Source: a virus (lineage: Duplodnaviria > Caudoviricetes). From it: a stretch of 42,913 nucleotides of DNA. The DNA lies in the IMG/VR virus record IMGVR_UViG_3300044472_000050, positions 1 through 42,913 of that record, one strand, 5' to 3'. The position numbers and the translations under genes are program-made. Shown piece by piece: positions 4,369 to 42,913 of this stretch. Position 1 is the first letter of the stretch; the number at the start of each line of letters is the position of its first letter. The notes under the pieces were generated by a model. The model worked only from the letters and a program-made list of their open reading frames with translations. It was not told where the DNA came from and made no database searches.

Positions 4369-4445
4369 GCACCGGAGAGAAGCGCTCGATCGCGCTGCCT
4401 AAAACCCCAAGGGCAGCACTGCTAAGGACGCTTGGCATCCGATGA
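4365..4445 (+). CDS. 26-aa micro-ORF MSTGEKRSIALPKTPRAALLRTLGIR
   Basis: GAGGAG SD, GTG coupled to the upstream TGA, own TGA overlaps the TerS ATG; same C-terminal 17 aa as 2764-2916. Confidence 0.4.
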   Translation: MSTGEKRSIALPKTPRAALLRTLGIR

Positions 4446-4452
4446 GACGAGC
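4392..4452 (+). repeat. 61-bp perfect direct repeat, copy 2 (contains the TerS start codon)
   Basis: Identical to 2863-2923. Confidence 0.97.
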
Positions 4453-15436: not shown

Positions 15437-16996
15437 ATGACGATCGACTATGAAGTCCTCCCGGGCGAGCTCGCGGCTCCGCTCGTGATCCAGGACTTCC
15501 TCCGCAAAGACTGGGAGGCGTATTCCTGGGACGATTCCTCCGGCCGGTTCTCCCGGAAGATCCTGGCGGCCTACGGCGCCTCCGACACCGAGGAGGCCGA
15601 CGCTTATGCGGGCTTCAAGGCCTTCTACGAGGCCGTTGCCTCCGAGATCGCCACTCGCTGGAGCAGCCATCGCGACCAGCTCCAATCCTCGGAGAAGGGT
15701 TTCTTCGCCATCCTCGAGCGGGACCTCACCGCCTCCGATGCGAAGGAAGCGGGGGGCGCGATCGAATACGAGCACGAGGACACCGACGGCCAGGTCGACA
15801 TCAAGACGAAGACTGGCCTCTGGCCGGCCCTCGCGGACGACATGGTCGCGAACAAGCGCCATTTTCTTGCCTCGGCGATCACCATCGGCTCCTTAGAGGC
15901 AAAGTCGACCAATCGCGGGTCGCTGACGAAGGTGGCCGCGACGGCCTTCCAGCACATCCTCCGTGGCAAGGCCTCCGGGGCGCTCATCCTGACCGTCGAC
16001 GACGACAATGTCGGAGCCCCTAAGCTCAATGTCCAGGTCCAGCTCGACACGCCGCTTCCGGATGGGAAGAAGCTGTTCGACGGCGGCACGTGGAAGCTGC
16101 AGCCGGAGAAGACCTATCAGAACGGCGACGTCGGCGCAGACGTCTTCCAGTTCGATCGGCCGGGTCTGACGGCGCCGACCAAGACGGGCGATTCGACAAA
16201 CATCCTGAGCGGCGCAGTCTTCTCCGATCCGGCGGAGGGGGATATGCCGGGTGGCGTCGTCTCCTATCGCATCCTCCACCAGGGCGGCTCGACTCCCTGG
16301 CTGGTCGAGCTCTATTCGGACCAGGAGCGGAAGGCCTCGCAGCGTGTCGGCTCGAAGGCTTTCGCGGGAGTCACCGGGATCGAGTCCCTCATCATCCCGC
16401 TCCGGAACAAGACGGAGCTTGCGATCGACTTCGACATCGACCTGGCTTTGGCCGTCGGCGGAATCCCGAATGAGGATGACGAGAAGGTCGGGACTTTCGA
16501 CGTCCTGACCCCGCAGGAAGGCGACCGCTGGACGATGGCGATCGCGAGCGACCAGGCGGGCAAGTTCGGGACGAAGCTCGCCTCGATCGGGCCGATCTCG
16601 CTGCCCGTCGGGCCCGCGAAGCCCGGATCCGCCTGCACGGCGGCGCTCGCCGGCGCCGGCGCGGGCAATGTCGACAACGGCACGCACACCTGGAAGTACA
16701 CCTATGTTTCGGCCCTGGGCGAATCCGAGGGCGCGACGGCCTCCAACGTGCTCAACGTCGTCGACAAGACCATCAATGGGAAGGTCGACCTGACCGGGAT
16801 CGCGAACGGTCCGGCCGGGACGACCGCGAAGAAGATCTACCGGCGAATCGCCGGCGATATGGGGAAATGGAAGCTGGTCGGGACCATCAACGACAACACG
16901 ACGACGACCTTCCAGGACAACATCGCCGACAGCGGGCTCGGGGCGGACGTCCCGATCCAGTTCGACGAGAGCCTGGCGGCGGACATCACAGTCTAA
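15437..16996 (+). CDS. Virion structural protein with C-terminal FN3/Ig-like module
   Basis: WKYTYVSALGES...KIYRR...TTTFQD is a pattern common in phage Ig/FN3-like domains. Confidence 0.55.
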   Translation: MTIDYEVLPGELAAPLVIQDFLRKDWEAYSWDDSSGRFSRKILAAYGASDTEEADAYAGFKAFYEAVASEIATRWSSHRDQLQSSEKGFFAILERDLTASDAKEAGGAIEYEHEDTDGQVDIKTKTGLWPALADDMVANKRHFLASAITIGSLEAKSTNRGSLTKVAATAFQHILRGKASGALILTVDDDNVGAPKLNVQVQLDTPLPDGKKLFDGGTWKLQPEKTYQNGDVGADVFQFDRPGLTAPTKTGDSTNILSGAVFSDPAEGDMPGGVVSYRILHQGGSTPWLVELYSDQERKASQRVGSKAFAGVTGIESLIIPLRNKTELAIDFDIDLALAVGGIPNEDDEKVGTFDVLTPQEGDRWTMAIASDQAGKFGTKLASIGPISLPVGPAKPGSACTAALAGAGAGNVDNGTHTWKYTYVSALGESEGATASNVLNVVDKTINGKVDLTGIANGPAGTTAKKIYRRIAGDMGKWKLVGTINDNTTTTFQDNIADSGLGADVPIQFDESLAADITV

Positions 16997-17014: not shown

Positions 17015-17452
17015 ATGGCGGAGGCGGCGGCAGAAAAAGCTCCCCAGTCGGCACCGTCCTCGAATGGCGCGGCGGCGGATCAGCCTGGAGCTTGGGAATG
17101 GACCGAAAAGGGCGTCAGGATCGGCGAAAAGGAGTTCGCGTTCGCCAAGACCGAGCCCGGCCAGATCCAGGAATACGCCGGTCGTCTCCTTGAGGTGACC
17201 GAAGCCTTCCGGTCGATGCTCCGCCTACGAGCCGTCTTCGAGAGCGGCCGCCTGGAGAGCTTTGAGGGCGCCTGGGAGAAGTCCCGCCAGGTCTTCCGGG
17301 AGGTCCAGAAGGCGGAACTCGCCCTGGCCGAAACGACTTCGGGGATTTCGATCTTCTTCGAGCCTGCGGACATCGCGCGGGAGTTCGACGGCGAGAGCAA
17401 GCTCCTCAAAGGCTTCATCGAAGAAGCGATCGATCGGATCGGAGGAAGGTAG
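17015..17452 (+). CDS. Probable tail assembly chaperone
   Basis: GGAGG SD, ATG at 17015; acidic helical protein immediately before the tape-measure-like gene. Confidence 0.45.
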   Translation: MAEAAAEKAPQSAPSSNGAAADQPGAWEWTEKGVRIGEKEFAFAKTEPGQIQEYAGRLLEVTEAFRSMLRLRAVFESGRLESFEGAWEKSRQVFREVQKAELALAETTSGISIFFEPADIAREFDGESKLLKGFIEEAIDRIGGR

Positions 17453-18072
17453 TGGGCGAGATCAAAGAGGTCCTGAGCGTCGATCTATCCGATCTTCAGG
17501 GGAAGCTCCGGGCCGCCGACACCCAGACGAAGCAGCAGGAACAGGAGGCCGATCGGGCGCAGAAGACGGCCGACCTCAAGCTTAAGGCCACAATGCTCCG
17601 GATCAAGGAGGCCCAGGAGCAGATCAACCAGCTCTCGGAGGCGACCGAGGCCGGCTTCCACCACGTGAAACGATCGATCATCAGGGCGGGATTCGCCGAA
17701 GTGGCCGGCTCGATCGCCGACGAGATGGGCATCCCCGAATCCGCCCAGCCGCTCGTCCATTTCTCCAAGGCCGCCTACCAGGGCTTCGAGCTCGGCGGCC
17801 TGCCCGGCGCCGGGATCGCGGTCGTCATGGAGGGCTTGAAGGAGCTCCTCCATGAATTCCGCTCCGAGAAGGAGAAGCACGAGAAGCTCCGGCAGGATCT
17901 CCTCCAGTTCAAGCAGGAGCAGGAGCGCCGGAACGAGGCGATTCAACGGGAGAGCGAGGCGCACCAGAGATCGCTTGATGAACAAATTGAGAAAGCGAAG
18001 CTCGAGGCGACAGAAGAATTCAAGAAGTTCCTCGACGAATCGCGGCTTTCTTATGTCCGCTCCGCCTGGTAG
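17452..18072 (+). CDS. Very short tape-measure-like protein (206 aa)
   Basis: N-terminal LSVDLSDLQGKL plus coiled coil, GGLPGAGIAVV small-residue segment, helical C-terminus; canonical tape-measure position; no other candidate in the genome. Confidence 0.65.
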   Translation: MGEIKEVLSVDLSDLQGKLRAADTQTKQQEQEADRAQKTADLKLKATMLRIKEAQEQINQLSEATEAGFHHVKRSIIRAGFAEVAGSIADEMGIPESAQPLVHFSKAAYQGFELGGLPGAGIAVVMEGLKELLHEFRSEKEKHEKLRQDLLQFKQEQERRNEAIQRESEAHQRSLDEQIEKAKLEATEEFKKFLDESRLSYVRSAW

Positions 18073-18079
18073 GTGATCC

Positions 18080-19096
18080 ATGGCATGGACTGTTGAAATC
18101 CGAAAGCCGTCCAGGACGACGACACTCAATATCAATTTCATCTGGGGGATCAACCTCGAGCAGGAAATCGCCTCGCCCACAGAGATCAGCTCCGTCAACT
18201 GGGAGATCGATATCGATGGCGAGCTGGTCGACTCCGACCCGAGCGTGATCGGCGAGAATTTCTTCACCTATGCGGAGCTCGTCGCCAGCAACTTCGAGCC
18301 GGCCGAGATCGCCTTCATCCAGGACGGCACCGAGCGCAAGGTCCTGAAGCCAGAGGAAGGGTTTATCGGGCCATTCCTGACCAGCTTCAGCTCGGGCGAA
18401 AAGGACGGCGGAGAAGGAAAATCGAAGATGTCCTACCGCCTCAAGATCGTCTATAAATCCCGCGGAGGACAGACCGAGAAGAAGGAAGACGTCTACGAAC
18501 TGGCCACCTCCCTCTCCATCACCAAGAAGAACGGCATCGTGGTCCGCAAGGTCTGGAAGGCCTCGGCCAAATCGACGAGCGCCGAGTCTGCTGAGGCGGC
18601 GACGAAGACCTTCACCCCCAGCGAGAAGTTCATCACCGAGGAGAGCGAGGTCTTCTATAAGGATTTCCGGGCGACCCGGATCTGGGTCTGGGAGCTCGAG
18701 GCCAAGGGGATCAAACGCTGGCGCTGCTCGGTCTTCTATTTCGGCGGCGACGACTTCGAGGTGGTGACGAGGGCGGGGGCTCGCGCGAAAGCGGCGCGTT
18801 TCCTGAAACAGGCCACCCCCCGGCGGATCGAGGTCACGGGGGAGATCGTCGCCTTTACGGCCGACATCCCGATTCCCGCCGATCATTTCAAGACGGGCGA
18901 GGATCTCTGGAAGATCCCCGCCGCGGAGAAGTTCCAGAAGGGGTCGGTCATCTTCGACGAGAAGCACGGGGAATACCGGAGGGAGTACCACGAAGTCTAC
19001 GAGTGCGTCGGGCAGATTCCCGAGCCGAATCACGACGGGAACCATCACCTCATCAATGCGGGGAATCCGCCGGCGGCGGGGGCGGTGGCGGCGTGA
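18080..19096 (+). CDS. Tail-tip protein (distal-tail-like), hypothetical
   Basis: Directly after the tape-measure-like gene; beta-rich. Confidence 0.5.
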   Translation: MAWTVEIRKPSRTTTLNINFIWGINLEQEIASPTEISSVNWEIDIDGELVDSDPSVIGENFFTYAELVASNFEPAEIAFIQDGTERKVLKPEEGFIGPFLTSFSSGEKDGGEGKSKMSYRLKIVYKSRGGQTEKKEDVYELATSLSITKKNGIVVRKVWKASAKSTSAESAEAATKTFTPSEKFITEESEVFYKDFRATRIWVWELEAKGIKRWRCSVFYFGGDDFEVVTRAGARAKAARFLKQATPRRIEVTGEIVAFTADIPIPADHFKTGEDLWKIPAAEKFQKGSVIFDEKHGEYRREYHEVYECVGQIPEPNHDGNHHLINAGNPPAAGAVAA

Positions 19097-19098
19097 GC

Positions 19099-19428
19099 TT
19101 ACTTGTTCTCCCGGGCATGCTCGATGCGGGCCTTTTCGTAGAATTCCTTGAATTCCTTTGTCGCCTCTTCCTGCGCTTTCTTAATGTTATCGTCCAAGGA
19201 TTTTTGCCGCGTCTCGTTTTCGCTTCGAATGGCCGCGTTGATCCGGCGTTGCTCCGCCTTCGATTGCTCGATCTCTTCGAGGCGGGCCTGCTCTTCTTGG
19301 TGATGCCGGTTATAGAGCACCCATCCGGCGATGCACCAGGTGGAGACGATCAAGGCGATGAATGCGACGATAAAATAATTCGGTCCCACCTGGCGGGGTG
19401 GCATTACCAGAAGGCGGGGTTCTCTCAT
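19099..19428 (-). CDS. Membrane-anchored tape-measure-C-terminus paralogue (moron; putative superinfection exclusion)
   Basis: GGAGGT SD then ATG at 19428; one TM helix YFIVAFIALIVSTWCIAGWVLY; C-terminal 50 aa 25/50 identical to the 17452-18072 C-terminus; lower GC; opposite strand. Confidence 0.8.
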   Translation of the reverse strand: MREPRLLVMPPRQVGPNYFIVAFIALIVSTWCIAGWVLYNRHHQEEQARLEEIEQSKAEQRRINAAIRSENETRQKSLDDNIKKAQEEATKEFKEFYEKARIEHARENK

Positions 19429-19447
19429 CGCAAAACCTCCACGCCGA

Positions 19448-19476
19448 ATCCTATCCCACTCTTTACGTTCTGGCAA
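19448..19476 (-). promoter_or_regulatory. Sigma70-type promoter of the moron
   Basis: On the - strand TTGCCA (19476-19471), 17-nt spacer, TAGGAT (19453-19448), just upstream of the SD. Confidence 0.7.
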
Positions 19477-19487
19477 GGGGGGCTCGG

Positions 19488-21959
19488 ATGCTGAAGGGCG
19501 AGCTCCGCTGCGAATACGAATATCAGGGCTACAAAGCCCGGAAGGGCGCCTATCGCCGATCCGACGGCCTCCAGCCCGAGGGGGGCTTCGTCGAGCTCTT
19601 CGTCTCGGACTTCAAGAAGCTCACTTTCAACATCCCCGGGATCCAGTGGCGCGCGGTCAACGGATTCGAATTCGACAGCGGAATCAGCATCCGCTCCTGG
19701 GAGCAGATGAGAGGTCTGGCCACGATCACGGCGGACCGGCCGGCGGCGCCGGAACCGGGCGGCGACGGGATCAATCTCTTCGGCGACCTCGTCATGCGGA
19801 CCTTCGCCGGGGACGAGATGGTCCACGAGGTCCGATATTCGGATGTCTATGTCGACCTCAGCTATGACGAGGTGATCCGCGGCCTGGCCAACGTGAAGGA
19901 GCATAAGGAGGGGGTGATCCGCGTCCCCCTCACGGACATCCGGCGCTATTACCAGAACTACGGGGCCTTTTTCACGCGCATCAACTGCCGAAGGAAAAAT
20001 GGCAAGCGGGACCTGGATTCCTTCAGGATCAACGGCGAAGCGCACCCTCTCACCCATGCGCTCGAGATGATGTTCACGCAGCTTCCCGGCTCGCCCATGA
20101 TCCTCAAGCCGTGCGACCTCTACGAAGAGTTCTTCGATCCGCCTCAGGGGGTCGAAGGCGAGGGAGAGCCGGTCCTCGGACACCTCGAAAAGCTTCTCGA
20201 GCGGTTCGGCCTCAAGGCCCAGATGCAGCCCGGCGGGAACTACCTCATCAACCGGAAGTTTTCAACACGTCTCAAGAGGTTCCACATTCCGACCGCTCCT
20301 GGGAAGCAGGCAAGCGTCGAAGAGGACCTGCACGACGAGCGCTTCGCCTTCGTTTCAACGGACCGGCCGGCGGCCGCCGCGGGTCTCGGCGGTCGGCGCG
20401 TCAAGCGCATGACGGCGCTCTTTGTGCCCGTGCTCCGCGATTCGGACGGTCTCTGGTACACGCTCGATACGATCTGCGTCCGCTGGAAGTATTCCCTCAC
20501 CGCGCTCAACCGCCAGGTGCTCGCGCTCAACGAGAAGAGCTTCGACGACGTCCTGCCTGCGAAAGATGGTTCCGAGGAGGACCTCGCGCTTCATGACGAG
20601 CGCCGGGATATGCTTCGGATGGCCTATCGCCACTATCTCCCTGCCTTCCTCTTCGCTCGCAACCCGGACGGCGGGGTCGATCTGGGGGATGCCGATTCGG
20701 AGGAGCTCGGCTTTCTCCCCATGGTCGATTGCGCCTGGTACCGCCAGGAATTCGAGAACCAGCGCCTGGCGAAGATCATGCCCCGGCCTGAATCGAAAGG
20801 CGGGGACCTCGGCGAGATCTTCCTCATGCCGCCGATCGTCCGCGGAAGGACCATCGGGCAGACGCTCTTCCGAACTTTCAAGGAGGTCGAGGACCAATTC
20901 GAGGCGAACGACAAGGACCTTAAGATTCAGATCGACGACCTTCTGAAGCAGCGCAACTACGACCGGTTCGTCGCCCAGCTCGCCGGCGAATTCCTCTTCG
21001 CCTCCGAATCCACCGCCGAGAAGACCCTTGAGCATCTCCGGGAGAGGGGCGTCGCGATCGACAAGGTTGAGCTGGATCTTGGCGGCGACATCAAGGACGC
21101 CGGGCAGAAAGTCGGCGTCGTCATCCCCATGAAGAAGCACGTCGAGCTGAGCAAGAACACCAAAGCTGCCCGGGAGACGCTCCTCGCCTTCGGGGGAGAG
21201 CAGGGCGTCGGGTATTGGGACAAGTTGATTGATAAGGCTGTCACGGCTCGGGAAAAACTTAAGCAAAGATTCGCGGAATTTAAGAAAACCTGGGAAGACA
21301 CCACCCAGATCCCCTGCCGGTACAATAAACCTCTTCAGACTCTCTCCCTGAGACCCGATCGCGATACGGGACTTATCACCTCGCCGCGGCCGCTCTGCGT
21401 CGCGAAAGACCCGTTCTTTTTCACGGGCGACAGCCAAGAGGTCGCGCTCGATGGTTGCGTCACTGTGACATTCGGCTACGAGATCAAGGGCCAGGACATC
21501 GAGGCCTTCACGAACTATCTCTTCCGAGCCGAGGACGGCGGGGATCCCGATAAGATTGCGACGACGAAGTTCTGCGGTTGCCATCGTTCGACGCCCATCA
21601 AGTCGAGGGTCTTCCCGATCGAGTCGCGGGAATACCTCCAGGAGAACGGGCAGCCGATGAACCTCAATGCCTGTCTCACCGAGGCGAAGGGCAAGGCGGC
21701 CGCAATGCTGAACCAGCCCCGACGCGTGCCGGCCTGGGTGCTCGAGGTGATCGGGCTCCGGAAAGCGGTGCTCGATGCCGGCGCCACCTCGATCCAGCAT
21801 GTCTGGAACGGCGCCGCGGGTCTGACCCACGTCTTCGTCAATGCGATCGGGAACGGCGGGCCGATGGGGCCTCCGAATCTCCCGCCTTCGACCAACCGGG
21901 CCATGGCCGATTTGAGAGAGATGATGCAGCGCGAGGATTTCGCCTCGGAGCTTCGATGA
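19488..21959 (+). CDS. Large tail-tip/hub-like protein (823 aa)
   Basis: AAGGGGGG SD, ATG at 19488 (MLKGELRC); position after the distal-tail-like gene; internal coiled-coil region. Confidence 0.55.
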   Translation: MLKGELRCEYEYQGYKARKGAYRRSDGLQPEGGFVELFVSDFKKLTFNIPGIQWRAVNGFEFDSGISIRSWEQMRGLATITADRPAAPEPGGDGINLFGDLVMRTFAGDEMVHEVRYSDVYVDLSYDEVIRGLANVKEHKEGVIRVPLTDIRRYYQNYGAFFTRINCRRKNGKRDLDSFRINGEAHPLTHALEMMFTQLPGSPMILKPCDLYEEFFDPPQGVEGEGEPVLGHLEKLLERFGLKAQMQPGGNYLINRKFSTRLKRFHIPTAPGKQASVEEDLHDERFAFVSTDRPAAAAGLGGRRVKRMTALFVPVLRDSDGLWYTLDTICVRWKYSLTALNRQVLALNEKSFDDVLPAKDGSEEDLALHDERRDMLRMAYRHYLPAFLFARNPDGGVDLGDADSEELGFLPMVDCAWYRQEFENQRLAKIMPRPESKGGDLGEIFLMPPIVRGRTIGQTLFRTFKEVEDQFEANDKDLKIQIDDLLKQRNYDRFVAQLAGEFLFASESTAEKTLEHLRERGVAIDKVELDLGGDIKDAGQKVGVVIPMKKHVELSKNTKAARETLLAFGGEQGVGYWDKLIDKAVTAREKLKQRFAEFKKTWEDTTQIPCRYNKPLQTLSLRPDRDTGLITSPRPLCVAKDPFFFTGDSQEVALDGCVTVTFGYEIKGQDIEAFTNYLFRAEDGGDPDKIATTKFCGCHRSTPIKSRVFPIESREYLQENGQPMNLNACLTEAKGKAAAMLNQPRRVPAWVLEVIGLRKAVLDAGATSIQHVWNGAAGLTHVFVNAIGNGGPMGPPNLPPSTNRAMADLREMMQREDFASELR

Positions 21960-31575: not shown

Positions 31576-31935
31576 ATGGCGGAAGGTACGGAGGTCCTCG
31601 GCGGCCGGAACGAGCCGCGGGAGCCGCAGTTCAAGCGGTTCACGGACCGTGTCCTGCTCTCGGCGTGCGGCCTCGTCATGGCGCTGGTCGGCCTGGTCTG
31701 GGCCCTGACCTGGAGGGGCTCCGAGGCCAAGATCCAGGAGGCTACCCAGCGCCTCAATGCCTCCGATGCGACCCAGAAGCAACACGCCGAGCGGATCATC
31801 AAGCTCGAGGTGTTGCAGGACCAAGCCGAGCGTCACCTCCAGTCGATCGACACCAAGCAATCCGTCATCGAGGGAAAGATCGACTCGACGCAAGGCTCCC
31901 TCAACCAGGTCCTGATCGAGATCCGGAAGAAATAG
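31576..31935 (+). CDS. Single-TM plus coiled-coil protein (holin/antiholin or spanin-like)
   Basis: TM VLLSACGLVMALVGLVWALTW followed by a heptad pattern; lysis position. Confidence 0.55.
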   Translation: MAEGTEVLGGRNEPREPQFKRFTDRVLLSACGLVMALVGLVWALTWRGSEAKIQEATQRLNASDATQKQHAERIIKLEVLQDQAERHLQSIDTKQSVIEGKIDSTQGSLNQVLIEIRKK

Positions 31936-31968
31936 GCGCACTGATTTTGGTGGAAGAAAGGAGACAGC

Positions 31969-32571
31969 ATGGCCGATGAATCGGCGGTCAATCCGGCCGC
32001 GGCGGTGAAGCCGGGATACAAGACGACGGAGTTCTGGCTGACGCTGCTCTCGATGCTGACGGGCGGCGTGATCTCGAGCGGGCTCTTCCCGGAGACGAGC
32101 CCGGTCATGAAGGGCGCGGGGCTTCTCGCGATGATCCTCGGGGCCTTCGGTTACACCGTCTCGCGCGGGATGGCGAAGGGCGCGAAGCTCCTCCTGGTCG
32201 GGATCCTGCTCTCGGCCGTCCTGGGCGGCTGCCGCTACGTCGACGAGAAAGCGGTGAAAGAGTTCCAGGTGGACGACGAGGCGATGATGGTCGAGCTCGC
32301 GAAGTACGTCTCGGCCGATCCCACCAAGCAGAAGCCCTCGCCGGCCCATCCTCAGTCGACGATCGCCCAAGACGAAGCGGCCGAGATCCAGAACCACCGG
32401 GCCGCGGTCGCCGGCGACGTCCGGGGCGTGGATCCGGCCGAGGAGCAGCGCCTCGTCGCGACGTTCCTGGCCTATGTCCAGAGCGACCCCCGGGCCTCGC
32501 CGGGCTTGAAGAAAGCCTGGTCGAACGTCGCCCGATCGCATCTGGATCTCTTCGCATCCGTCCATCGGTAG
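31969..32571 (+). CDS. Holin-like membrane protein with C-terminal lipobox-like segment and soluble domain
   Basis: KPGYKTTEFW holin-like start, three hydrophobic helices, the third ending VLGGC. Confidence 0.55.
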   Translation: MADESAVNPAAAVKPGYKTTEFWLTLLSMLTGGVISSGLFPETSPVMKGAGLLAMILGAFGYTVSRGMAKGAKLLLVGILLSAVLGGCRYVDEKAVKEFQVDDEAMMVELAKYVSADPTKQKPSPAHPQSTIAQDEAAEIQNHRAAVAGDVRGVDPAEEQRLVATFLAYVQSDPRASPGLKKAWSNVARSHLDLFASVHR

Positions 32572-32598
32572 ATCCCAGAGAGAGAAGGAGAAAAACTC

Positions 32599-32976
32599 AT
32601 GCCCGACCCCGCCGCCCCGGCCCCTGCGGGCCTCGACTGGTCCGCGATCGGGAACTCGATCGCGAACGACGCGATCGCCGTCGTGAAAGCGAAGGCCACG
32701 GGCTTCCTCGAGAAGCACCCGGATGCCCTCGCCCACATGAAGGAGTGCGCCTTCGACGCCGCGAAGGCCCTCGTCCTCTATGGCCTGACCTCCGACCCCG
32801 ACGCGAGGGCCGACTTCAAGAAGCAGGTCGAGCTCGACAACCAGGCGAGCCGCGAGGAGGCGCTCTCGATCATCAAGGACGCGGCCGACGAGGCGCCGTC
32901 GGTCTTCTGGACCGTGCTCGAGGACATCGGGAAGATCGCCCTCGGTCTCGCGCCGATCCTGCTCAAGGCGATCTAG
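32599..32976 (+). CDS. Hypothetical helical protein with amphipathic C-terminus
   Basis: AAGGAG SD; end of the late operon. Confidence 0.65.
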   Translation: MPDPAAPAPAGLDWSAIGNSIANDAIAVVKAKATGFLEKHPDALAHMKECAFDAAKALVLYGLTSDPDARADFKKQVELDNQASREEALSIIKDAADEAPSVFWTVLEDIGKIALGLAPILLKAI

Positions 32977-33431: not shown

Positions 33432-33502
33432 TAGGGGCGGCGGGATTCGAACCCGCATCTCAAGGGTTCAAGCCAAGCGTCCTACCGTTAGACGACGCCC
33501 CC
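33432..33502 (-). tRNA. Atypical tRNA, anticodon read as UGA (Ser) on a short-variable-loop body
   Basis: GGGGGCG/CGCCCCT acceptor, GTC-TAACGGTAG-GAC D arm, GCGGG-TTCGAAT-CCCGC T arm; anticodon stem CTTGG/CCTTG has two U-U pairs; no encoded CCA. Confidence 0.7.
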
Positions 33503-41827: not shown

Positions 41828-42391
41828 ATGACCCACGAGCTCCGAGTCCCGGGCGCGCCGGCCGCGCGGATCCTCCCCGCGATCGAGCGGCTTCTCGCCG
41901 GCCTCGCCGGCGCCTGCCAGCGGATCGAGCTGGCCGGCGCCGCGCGCCGCGGGGAGCGGAACCTCGACTGGGTGGACCTCCTCGCGATCCCGAAGATCGA
42001 GCCTGCGGGTCAGGGGGCCGCGGCGCACAACTACCTCTGGGCCACCCTCGAGGGGATGCCGGGCCTGGCCCGCCTCAAGTGGGGCGGGGCGCTCATGCGG
42101 AGCTTCTATTTCCCATACACCCCGGACGACGTCGTCCAGGTCAATCTCTACACGACCCGGCCGGAGAATTGGGGCATCGCGCATATCCATCGGACCGGGA
42201 GCGAGGGCTTCTGGCACTGGATCATGGCGAGGATGAAGGCGCGGAACCTGGCGCCGATCGACGGCCAGGTCCTCCGGATTCCCGAGAACCACATTGTACC
42301 GATCGCCGAGGAGGCGGATCTCTTCCGGCTCCTTGACATGCATGTCTTCCCGCCGAACACCCGAAAGGGGCCGGAGGCGAGCCGGTGGTAG
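41828..42391 (+). CDS. Truncated PolX (DNA polymerase beta-like palm/thumb), catalytic residues degenerate
   Basis: RIELAGAARRG...VDLL...QVNLY...WG...RTGS..F...EEADLFRLL..PP..R follows the PolX motif order. Confidence 0.75.
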   Translation: MTHELRVPGAPAARILPAIERLLAGLAGACQRIELAGAARRGERNLDWVDLLAIPKIEPAGQGAAAHNYLWATLEGMPGLARLKWGGALMRSFYFPYTPDDVVQVNLYTTRPENWGIAHIHRTGSEGFWHWIMARMKARNLAPIDGQVLRIPENHIVPIAEEADLFRLLDMHVFPPNTRKGPEASRW

Positions 42392-42434: not shown

Positions 42435-42913
42435 GTGAAGGAGCATCCGAAAGATGAGGCCGATCGGATTGGCTGGTTCCCGATGCCGGCGTTCAGCCCG
42501 AGGACCCAATGGATCGGGGACGATTCCGAGACGCTCGCGGCCTGGACCAGGCTCTGGGCTTCCACGAAGTCGTGGCCCTCGAGCGCGCGATTCCGCGGCC
42601 GCAAGGTCCCCCTCGAGGTCGGGCAGCTGGCCACGACGTACCTCGGCTTCGCCGATCTCTGCGGCTGGAGCCGGAACCGCGTGAAGACTTTCTTCTCGGA
42701 ACTCATCAAGAGCGAGGAGCTGCTGGTGACGCCGCGCTCCTACGACCCCGAATCGGACACTTGGAAGGACAGCAAATCGGACAGCGGATTGCTCGTCTTA
42801 ACCCTTCTCTGCCATCCATTTAGGAAAAGCGAATCCGAGATCCGGACAGCGGATCGGACAGCGAAAAGGACAGGGGATGAGGGGAAAGGACAGGAAAAGG
42901 ACAGGGAAAGGAC
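42435..42913 (+). CDS. N-terminal part of phage replication initiator (winged-helix)
   Basis: GTG at 42435 after a G-run SD; GWFPMP...VPLEVGQLATTYLGFADLCGWSRNRVKTFFSEL typical of phage initiators; open to the window end, and on circular joining it stops at TAG 145-147. Confidence 0.7.
   Translation, partial: MKEHPKDEADRIGWFPMPAFSPRTQWIGDDSETLAAWTRLWASTKSWPSSARFRGRKVPLEVGQLATTYLGFADLCGWSRNRVKTFFSELIKSEELLVTPRSYDPESDTWKDSKSDSGLLVLTLLCHPFRKSESEIRTADRTAKRTGDEGKGQEKDRER
42753..42878 (+). repeat. Terminal direct repeat (copy 2)
   Basis: Identical to 1-126. Confidence 0.97.

Follow-up and report, generated by a model that had tools for sequence, protein, structure and literature searches.

A predicted membrane protein encoded antisense in a phage tail operon is a lineage-tracking paralogue of the putative tape measure tip

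The phage and its tail genes

The window, by which we mean the entire 42,913-nt stretch of DNA analysed, corresponds to one complete phage record, whose 126-nt terminal repeat implies a circle of 42,752 bp. Family matches identified genes for a terminase, a lambda-type portal, an S49 protease, a capsid protein, a tyrosine integrase and ParB. On this gene set the phage is likely temperate; integrases are encoded in the window and in the complete relative that carries the gene described below. The window proteins scanned for a repressor gave no clear candidate and a single weak LacI-type helix-turn-helix match. Scans of genome collections for the locus returned zero loci, a search of plasmids with the integrase yielded generic recombinase matches of only 34-39% among the 15 matches listed, and the hub protein was absent from all cultured phages searched. 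The tail genes central to this study are as follows.

17452..18072, plus strand: putative short tape measure protein, 206 aa (protein family, helical model, synteny, weak PHROG matches)
17911..18060, plus strand: tape measure segment matched by the antisense gene, variable within the family (alignment)
18080..19096, plus strand: conserved 338-aa tail gene between both copies, in the distal-tail position (synteny in all loci)
19488..21959, plus strand: baseplate hub protein, 823 aa, with a Mu gp44 / VgrG-like fold (Foldseek on the model)

The 206-aa protein is almost entirely helical, with a central hydrophobic Gly/Ala-rich stretch, and was modelled as three helices. In all loci its gene sits behind putative tail tube and chaperone genes and ahead of the distal-tail and hub genes, and the order of the tail genes (324-aa gene, ~400-540-aa gene, small gene, ~200-280-aa helical gene, ~340-aa gene, hub) is kept across related loci. 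The hub model (mean pLDDT 62) matched the MuSo2 43-kDa tail protein (3cdd) in Foldseek with E 1.3e-4 and probability 1.0, and the Atlas structure neighbours of the 823-aa protein were hub-type, each below the naming bar. Structural searches with the putative tube, chaperone and distal-tail proteins gave nothing, and these labels are positional only; the 338-aa protein had no hit in Pfam, PHROG or PDB. Word-index protein searches with the antisense gene product and with the 206-aa protein returned self-matches only, and single-protein locus scans found no locus. An index-free search with the 206-aa protein yielded 27 hits, mostly of 193-223 aa, and recovered the antisense gene product itself at 1.5e-4. 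Tape measure PHROGs weakly matched five of the 25 family members (best 3e-5), with no match for the 206-aa protein of the window, whose Atlas feature lead was TMP_2 at rank 12; a fold search of its model against viral structures gave no match. As the assignment draws on synteny, the fold of a neighbour and weak family matches, we consider the 206-aa gene likely, if indirectly, to encode the tape measure protein. One further protein, P0023 (125 aa), resembled a second truncated copy of the tape measure; because its cluster includes a 198-aa protein, we treated it as a fragment and did not consider it further.

Several other features of the record were noted. In every relative, putative tube and chaperone genes flank the conserved 400-540-aa gene (15437-16996 in the window), an odd slot for a tail gene; its versions in the window and in L059 carry a C-terminal extension, and the window version has a weak PHROG match. 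A 71-nt tRNA (33432-33502, minus strand) with anticodon TGA was called as Ser and lacks a long variable arm; lying ~440 nt from the integrase end, it is a possible attachment-site or recoding lead. A 61-nt perfect direct repeat (2863-2923 and 4392-4452, spacing 1,529 bp) just 5' of the small terminase gene brackets two genes and resembles an insertion with duplicated ends, while short GGACAG-containing repeats near the circle junction (81-201 and 42744-42896) are possible origin iterons. Small membrane genes clustered at 31576-32976, including one of 119 aa (a membrane segment, then a helix) and one of 200 aa (several hydrophobic segments and a lipobox-like motif), may make up a lysis cassette, although the proteins scanned included no identifiable endolysin. 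Finally, a 187-aa gene (41828-42391) has a weak DNA polymerase beta thumb match (3e-5, below the cut-off).

The antisense gene and its expression signals

Between the 338-aa gene and the hub gene lies a short gene on the opposite strand, which we refer to as the moron.

19428-19099, minus strand: moron gene, 109 aa from ATG (open reading frame, hydropathy, alignment)
19315..19377, minus strand: predicted transmembrane helix, residues 18-38, mean Kyte-Doolittle 2.22 (hydropathy)
19111..19260, minus strand: mimic segment, 50 codons, 25/50 aa and 96/150 nt identical to 17911-18060
19476-19448, minus strand: sigma-70-type promoter-like site, TTGCCA-17-TAGGAT, 9/12 match
19440-19435, minus strand: Shine-Dalgarno sequence GGAGGT, with the identical hexamer in L002 and L008
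19093..19494, plus strand: frame left open through the entire insertion, running from where the 338-aa gene stops to where the hub starts (open-frame scan)

A preliminary description of this DNA had reported the reverse-strand gene, its GGAGGT Shine-Dalgarno sequence and one N-terminal transmembrane helix, all of which were confirmed by sequence and hydropathy. The predicted protein consists of a short basic N-terminal tail, the single transmembrane helix and then a 71-residue helix, with the final 53 residues copying the tape measure C-terminus. The transmembrane helix aligns in register with a weakly hydrophobic helix of the putative tape measure. One 21-residue hydrophobic helix is predicted by hydropathy in each of the three distinct morons found (see below), with three, four and five lysines plus arginines before it versus two, four and three after it, a charge bias that points weakly to an N-in topology.

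The promoter claimed in the same description is present and recurs in relatives, although by itself the match is no better than chance (one site found, 0.5 expected). TTGCCT-17-TATAGT stands at the equivalent place in L008 and L002, where it is the sole promoter-like site in each scanned region, and the site in the window gains weight from this recurrence. The morons thus have in common the layout TTGCC-17-TA..T followed by GGAGGT. In the window, the -35 box lies opposite the hub gene's likely ribosome site, on the reverse strand.

A sense-strand frame of 127-133 codons is open in every moron locus (window 19093-19494, L002 11618-12001, L003 11606-11989, L008 1055-1438), beginning at the ~340-aa gene's stop and finishing on the hub start. 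Over the moron body, such an in-register antisense frame is expected; for the promoter stretch, the chance that the sense frame would meet its stop within the final 12 nt is ~0.07-0.09 per lineage. A Pfam scan of the window frame gave no match. The frame may preserve translational coupling, or may be a mere by-product.

The moron matches the C-terminus of the putative tape measure

Residues 57-106 of the moron align without gaps to residues 154-203 of the 206-aa protein, with 25/50 identical, and both proteins stop three residues past the matched segment. Under three shuffling schemes, each run 10,000 times, the Smith-Waterman score of 141 was never reached (maxima of 71 for the whole protein, 81 for the segment and 92 with heptads preserved), and BLASTP of the two proteins gave 3e-13. 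The match as first described, including its shared end, therefore survives composition-matched shuffling, and a chance coiled-coil likeness is rejected. All three distinct moron/tape measure pairs finish in exact register. In the window, identities fall at 17 of 37 polar and 8 of 16 hydrophobic positions; across the pairs they show no preferred helix face (p 0.05-0.94) and so indicate no specific interface. Across their 50 residues, the two segments have a net charge of +2 and of -2.

At the DNA level, the proposed diverged inverted repeat (17911-18060 and 19111-19260) was also borne out, with 96/150 nt identical and a longest exact run of 9 nt; a site-specific invertible segment was rejected as its explanation. 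The GC content of the segments, earlier put at about 50%, is 54.7% and 53.3%. Amino-acid content alone predicts 61% and 59%, accounting for about half of the drop below the genome level, the remainder being third-position GC (0.68 and 0.70, versus 0.87 and 0.86 expected).

Distribution among related phages

We compared the window with 11 related viral records sharing the tail module. A search through 27 capsid-gene loci, 24 of them script-screened and three already in the set, added one new lineage with this tail module. An antisense membrane gene occupies the equivalent site in three of the 11 records, G005 (loci L001/L008), G007 (L002) and G008 (L003), the last two being identical across the 180 nt compared. 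The equivalents, assigned by locus comparison, are as follows.

L002 11624-11944, minus strand: moron equivalent
L003 11612-11932, minus strand: moron equivalent
L008 1061-1381, minus strand: moron equivalent

In the other eight records the site holds no moron, and the ~340-aa gene adjoins or overlaps the hub gene. Whole-record profile searches found a second tape measure copy in G005, G007 and G008; the complete records G001, G003, G004 and G006 had no such copy, nor did G002 and G009 (~30% complete); two near-copies of G004 were examined at their loci only. Counted by lineage, three carry the moron, the window included, and six do not. The L001 and L002 morons differ from each other with pN 0.20 and pS 0.50, indicating purifying selection. 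Patchy presence, low third-position GC, a conserved promoter-like site and purifying selection together uphold the original designation of the gene as a moron. In two of the relatives, insertions of ~3-6 kb lie between the portal and protease genes (L031 2310-8095, L035 4981-7687).

The moron tracks the tape measure of its own lineage

When the last 60 residues were aligned from the stop, the morons shared 26 (window), 32 (G005) and 27 (G007) identities with their own tape measures, versus 4-8 across the two distant lineages. Among 28 tape measure C-termini scored, each moron ranked its own lineage top (136 for the window; 153 and 126-128 for the relatives), with the best outsider at 83. Within the family, the matched segment is the part that varies: tape measures other than the window's reach at most 16/50 against it. 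In a tree of the last 66 residues, each moron groups with the tape measures of its own lineage and a moron clade is rejected (p-AU 0.013), in a short alignment with many weak branches. An old shared domain without such tracking was rejected as an explanation of the likeness.

Between the two close relatives the signal is weak. At 12 sites compared between G005 and G007, cognate matches number 7 versus 2 cross matches, and the G007 moron scores 126 with its own tape measure and 128 with the other's, showing no preference for its own; the G005 moron does prefer its own. By these comparisons, the moron tracks the tape measure end of its own lineage, across two independent lineages only. Cognate pairs thus resemble each other more than non-cognate ones between distant lineages and only weakly so between close ones, which falls short of establishing the strict decoy-target specificity pair envisaged in the preliminary description. 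Separately, of the tape measures from outside its lineage, the window moron comes nearest to P0008 in C-terminal sequence (score 83-88, 16/50), making P0008 a candidate cross-target or bearer of a related moron.

Origin and maintenance of the likeness

The morons look orthologous in their front part. The first 55 residues are similar among them (p 0.0006 and 0.005, in block shuffles keeping the membrane helix in place), and in all of them the gap to the upstream stop is 2 nt. A profile built without the window and L002 tape measures matches all three morons, two from residue 22-24 and that of the window from residue 33; because the match begins within the membrane helix in two morons, the last ~85 residues probably derive from the 3' half of the tape measure gene. 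Trees of the hub and of the ~340-aa gene place the moron-bearing phages in one supported clade with the moron-less G002, implying either (i) one gain and one loss or (ii) two gains, of which we favour one gain. A count of three label changes on the hub tree was set aside, as ten proteins of uncertain moron status had been scored moron-less.

For L001 and L002, moron and tape measure differ with pN 0.35-0.44 and pS 0.74-0.87, keeping 45-53% of residues, and the codons they have in common (10/30 and 9/26) are not above chance (11.6 and 10.5 expected). As synonymous sites are saturated and there is no excess codon sharing, the likeness in these relatives is held at the protein level. In the window, five of ten rare codons are common to both genes (1.2 expected, P 0.003), so part of the likeness there may reflect recent copying rather than selection, probably a later DNA copy between the moron and the tape measure gene. 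Third-position GC at the window tape measure end is 0.71 versus 0.88, and it is likewise lowered in the moron-less relative L016.

We thus envisage that a single ancestral inverted duplication of the tape measure 3' half would have provided the moron body, in which a weakly hydrophobic helix became a true membrane anchor. The C-terminal helix would later have been re-matched to the resident tape measure by selection, probably with an extra DNA copy event in the window lineage.

A possible block to phage DNA entry

On these analyses the moron is a genuine paralogue of the putative tape measure tip, predicted to sit in the membrane, kept under selection and tracking its own lineage, and it likely acts as a dispensable superinfection-exclusion gene. 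Our main reading, to which we assign a probability of about 0.5, is that this membrane-anchored paralogue, likely expressed from its own promoter in lysogens, blocks DNA entry by phages with similar tape measures. The lysogen would make the moron from that promoter and insert it N-in/C-out in the membrane, where it would either substitute for one chain of the ejected tape measure helix bundle or occupy its docking site on the opened tail tip; entry of DNA from phages with a similar tape measure would then fail. A block at entry would also account for the phage being able to carry so close a copy of its own protein. The earlier proposal of exclusion by tape measure mimicry is supported in part, by the paralogy, its significance, the patchy presence of the gene and its tracking between distant lineages.

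Other phages offer precedents for such a step. Within the lambda tail tip, the tape measure C-terminus is arranged as a three-helix coil (PMC10721106). The processed tape measure of T5 docks, after opening, between hub subunits by its last 43 residues, and the hydrophobic stretch following the docked residues is proposed to insert into the outer membrane (10.1101/2022.09.20.507954); the moron has a like shape, a membrane helix and a C-terminal helix ending in register. Blocks by gp15 (HK97) and Ltp are escaped through tape measure changes (PMC10883804, PMC3952083). Geometry may tell against the proposal, as a 70-residue helix (~10 nm, by our estimate) on the inner membrane may fall short of a tail tip at the outer membrane.

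A cytoplasm-facing decoy that tethers the hub or tail chaperone to the membrane, and so blocks tail assembly by superinfecting phages in the manner of Tab, is rather unlikely. The charge counts leave the topology of the moron ambiguous, and tape measure C-termini form a three-helix coil in the tail tip (PMC10721106). However, on induction a moron so like the phage's own tape measure would poison assembly of that phage itself, unless late transcription across the moron, or the sense-strand frame, spared the lytic cycle. That frame shares the moron's register, in which GC-rich DNA is expected to leave antisense frames open, and it gave no family match; nor would an assembly block need a conserved membrane anchor.

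Exclusion might instead be achieved by titrating a host envelope factor that the tape measure C-terminus requires, such as an inner-membrane protein or periplasmic chaperone, or by acting as a sponge for a tape-measure-sensing host defence. Identity at polar and hydrophobic positions alike fits a mimic of the whole surface, and host proteins and SNIPE associate with tape measures during injection (PMC13190303). Yet a constant host partner would tend to keep the segment alike among phages infecting a single host, and within the family this segment is the part that varies, a weak point; we regard this explanation as unlikely.

We find it harder still to view the moron as a recombination reservoir, an inverted copy trading DNA with the tape measure 3' end by double inversion or gene conversion, with the likeness as a by-product. 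The inverted pair does flank a single gene, and the window shows both the shared rare codons and lowered third-position GC at its tape measure end. Against this, the longest exact matches are 9-11 nt, codon sharing in L001 and L002 is not above chance despite the proportion of residues kept, and the moron-less L016 also has lowered third-position GC at its tape measure end.

An inner-membrane spanin or other lysis accessory, with the tape measure likeness marking its origin only, is most improbable: an Rz-like spanin profile weakly matches all three morons (best 1e-5), but a tape measure family member matches a spanin profile too, as expected for helix-after-membrane-segment shapes, and the gene runs against the late genes and has a promoter-like site to itself, shows no lipobox in the same-strand frames that cover or follow it in the three loci, is missing from eight of 11 related records, and would leave the cognate tracking unexplained.

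Returning to the block at DNA entry, we advance only tentatively the broader idea that phages make exclusion factors by duplicating their own tape measure tip, anchoring it in the membrane and keeping the match under drift, possibly as a class that recurs in unrelated phage groups. A paralogue serving as a decoy would be a new route to building an exclusion protein. If self-mimicry holds, the specificity of exclusion is legible from the sequence itself, and exclusion groups become predictable from genomes via self-alignment. The moron would then also be a natural dominant-negative probe of tape measure C-terminus docking and DNA conduit formation, and the sizes involved, a 206-aa tape measure and a 109-aa copy, suit direct biochemistry.

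Comparison with known systems

By sequence, the moron is outside every described superinfection-exclusion family. Pfam and PHROGs gave zero matches to such families, and in a PADLOC scan the window moron had no match and the other two had weak ones, at 2e-4 or worse. With the morons that exclude at the DNA entry step (gp15, Ltp, Imm, SieA) it does share patchy presence, a promoter-like site and Shine-Dalgarno sequence of its own, and a membrane anchor, here predicted from hydropathy. Full-text literature searches, with subscription journals largely outside their reach, found no defence protein described as a tape measure paralogue. To our knowledge, the tape-measure-directed exclusion proteins known so far bear no sequence relation to their target. 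The HK97 gp15 moron, a superinfection-exclusion gene that sits in the tail region under a promoter of its own, is a close parallel; we know of no indication that it is a tape measure paralogue, and the window moron differs from it in having no sequence likeness in the Pfam, PHROGs and PADLOC scans.

T4 Imm is likewise a small membrane protein that binds the tape measure of its own phage in the membrane, preventing pore formation (10.64898/2026.03.06.709160). It differs in having four helices in the membrane, in coming from a phage that is lytic and contractile, and in binding a helical-bundle domain, and the term "mimic" is absent from that paper. Ltp, from Streptococcus thermophilus phage TP-J34, is a prophage protein tethered to the membrane, for which contact with an incoming tape measure's C-terminal region has been proposed (PMC3952083). 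It is a lipoprotein with repeat domains acting by charge complementarity, whereas the window moron has no lipobox, and its segment and that of the tape measure are half identical.

Tab and anti-Tab of Pseudomonas phage JBD26 resemble the arrangement seen here, with an antisense, self-promoted gene in the late operon and an overlapping sense-strand partner, and sensitivity to Tab maps to the tape measure C-terminal region (PMC10884400). Tab itself, however, is a soluble protein that blocks assembly, its gene is placed between those for the terminase (PMC10884400), and it is not known to have tape measure homology. Set beside these Tab-type features, the moron loci have a predicted membrane helix and, in all cases, a sense frame, possibly a by-product. 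The prophage FimU mimics (P-FimU) are also look-alike prophage defences, which diversify with phage tail proteins; they copy a host pilus component and block adsorption (PMC12952977), whereas the model for the window moron appears to be a virion protein of the phage itself.
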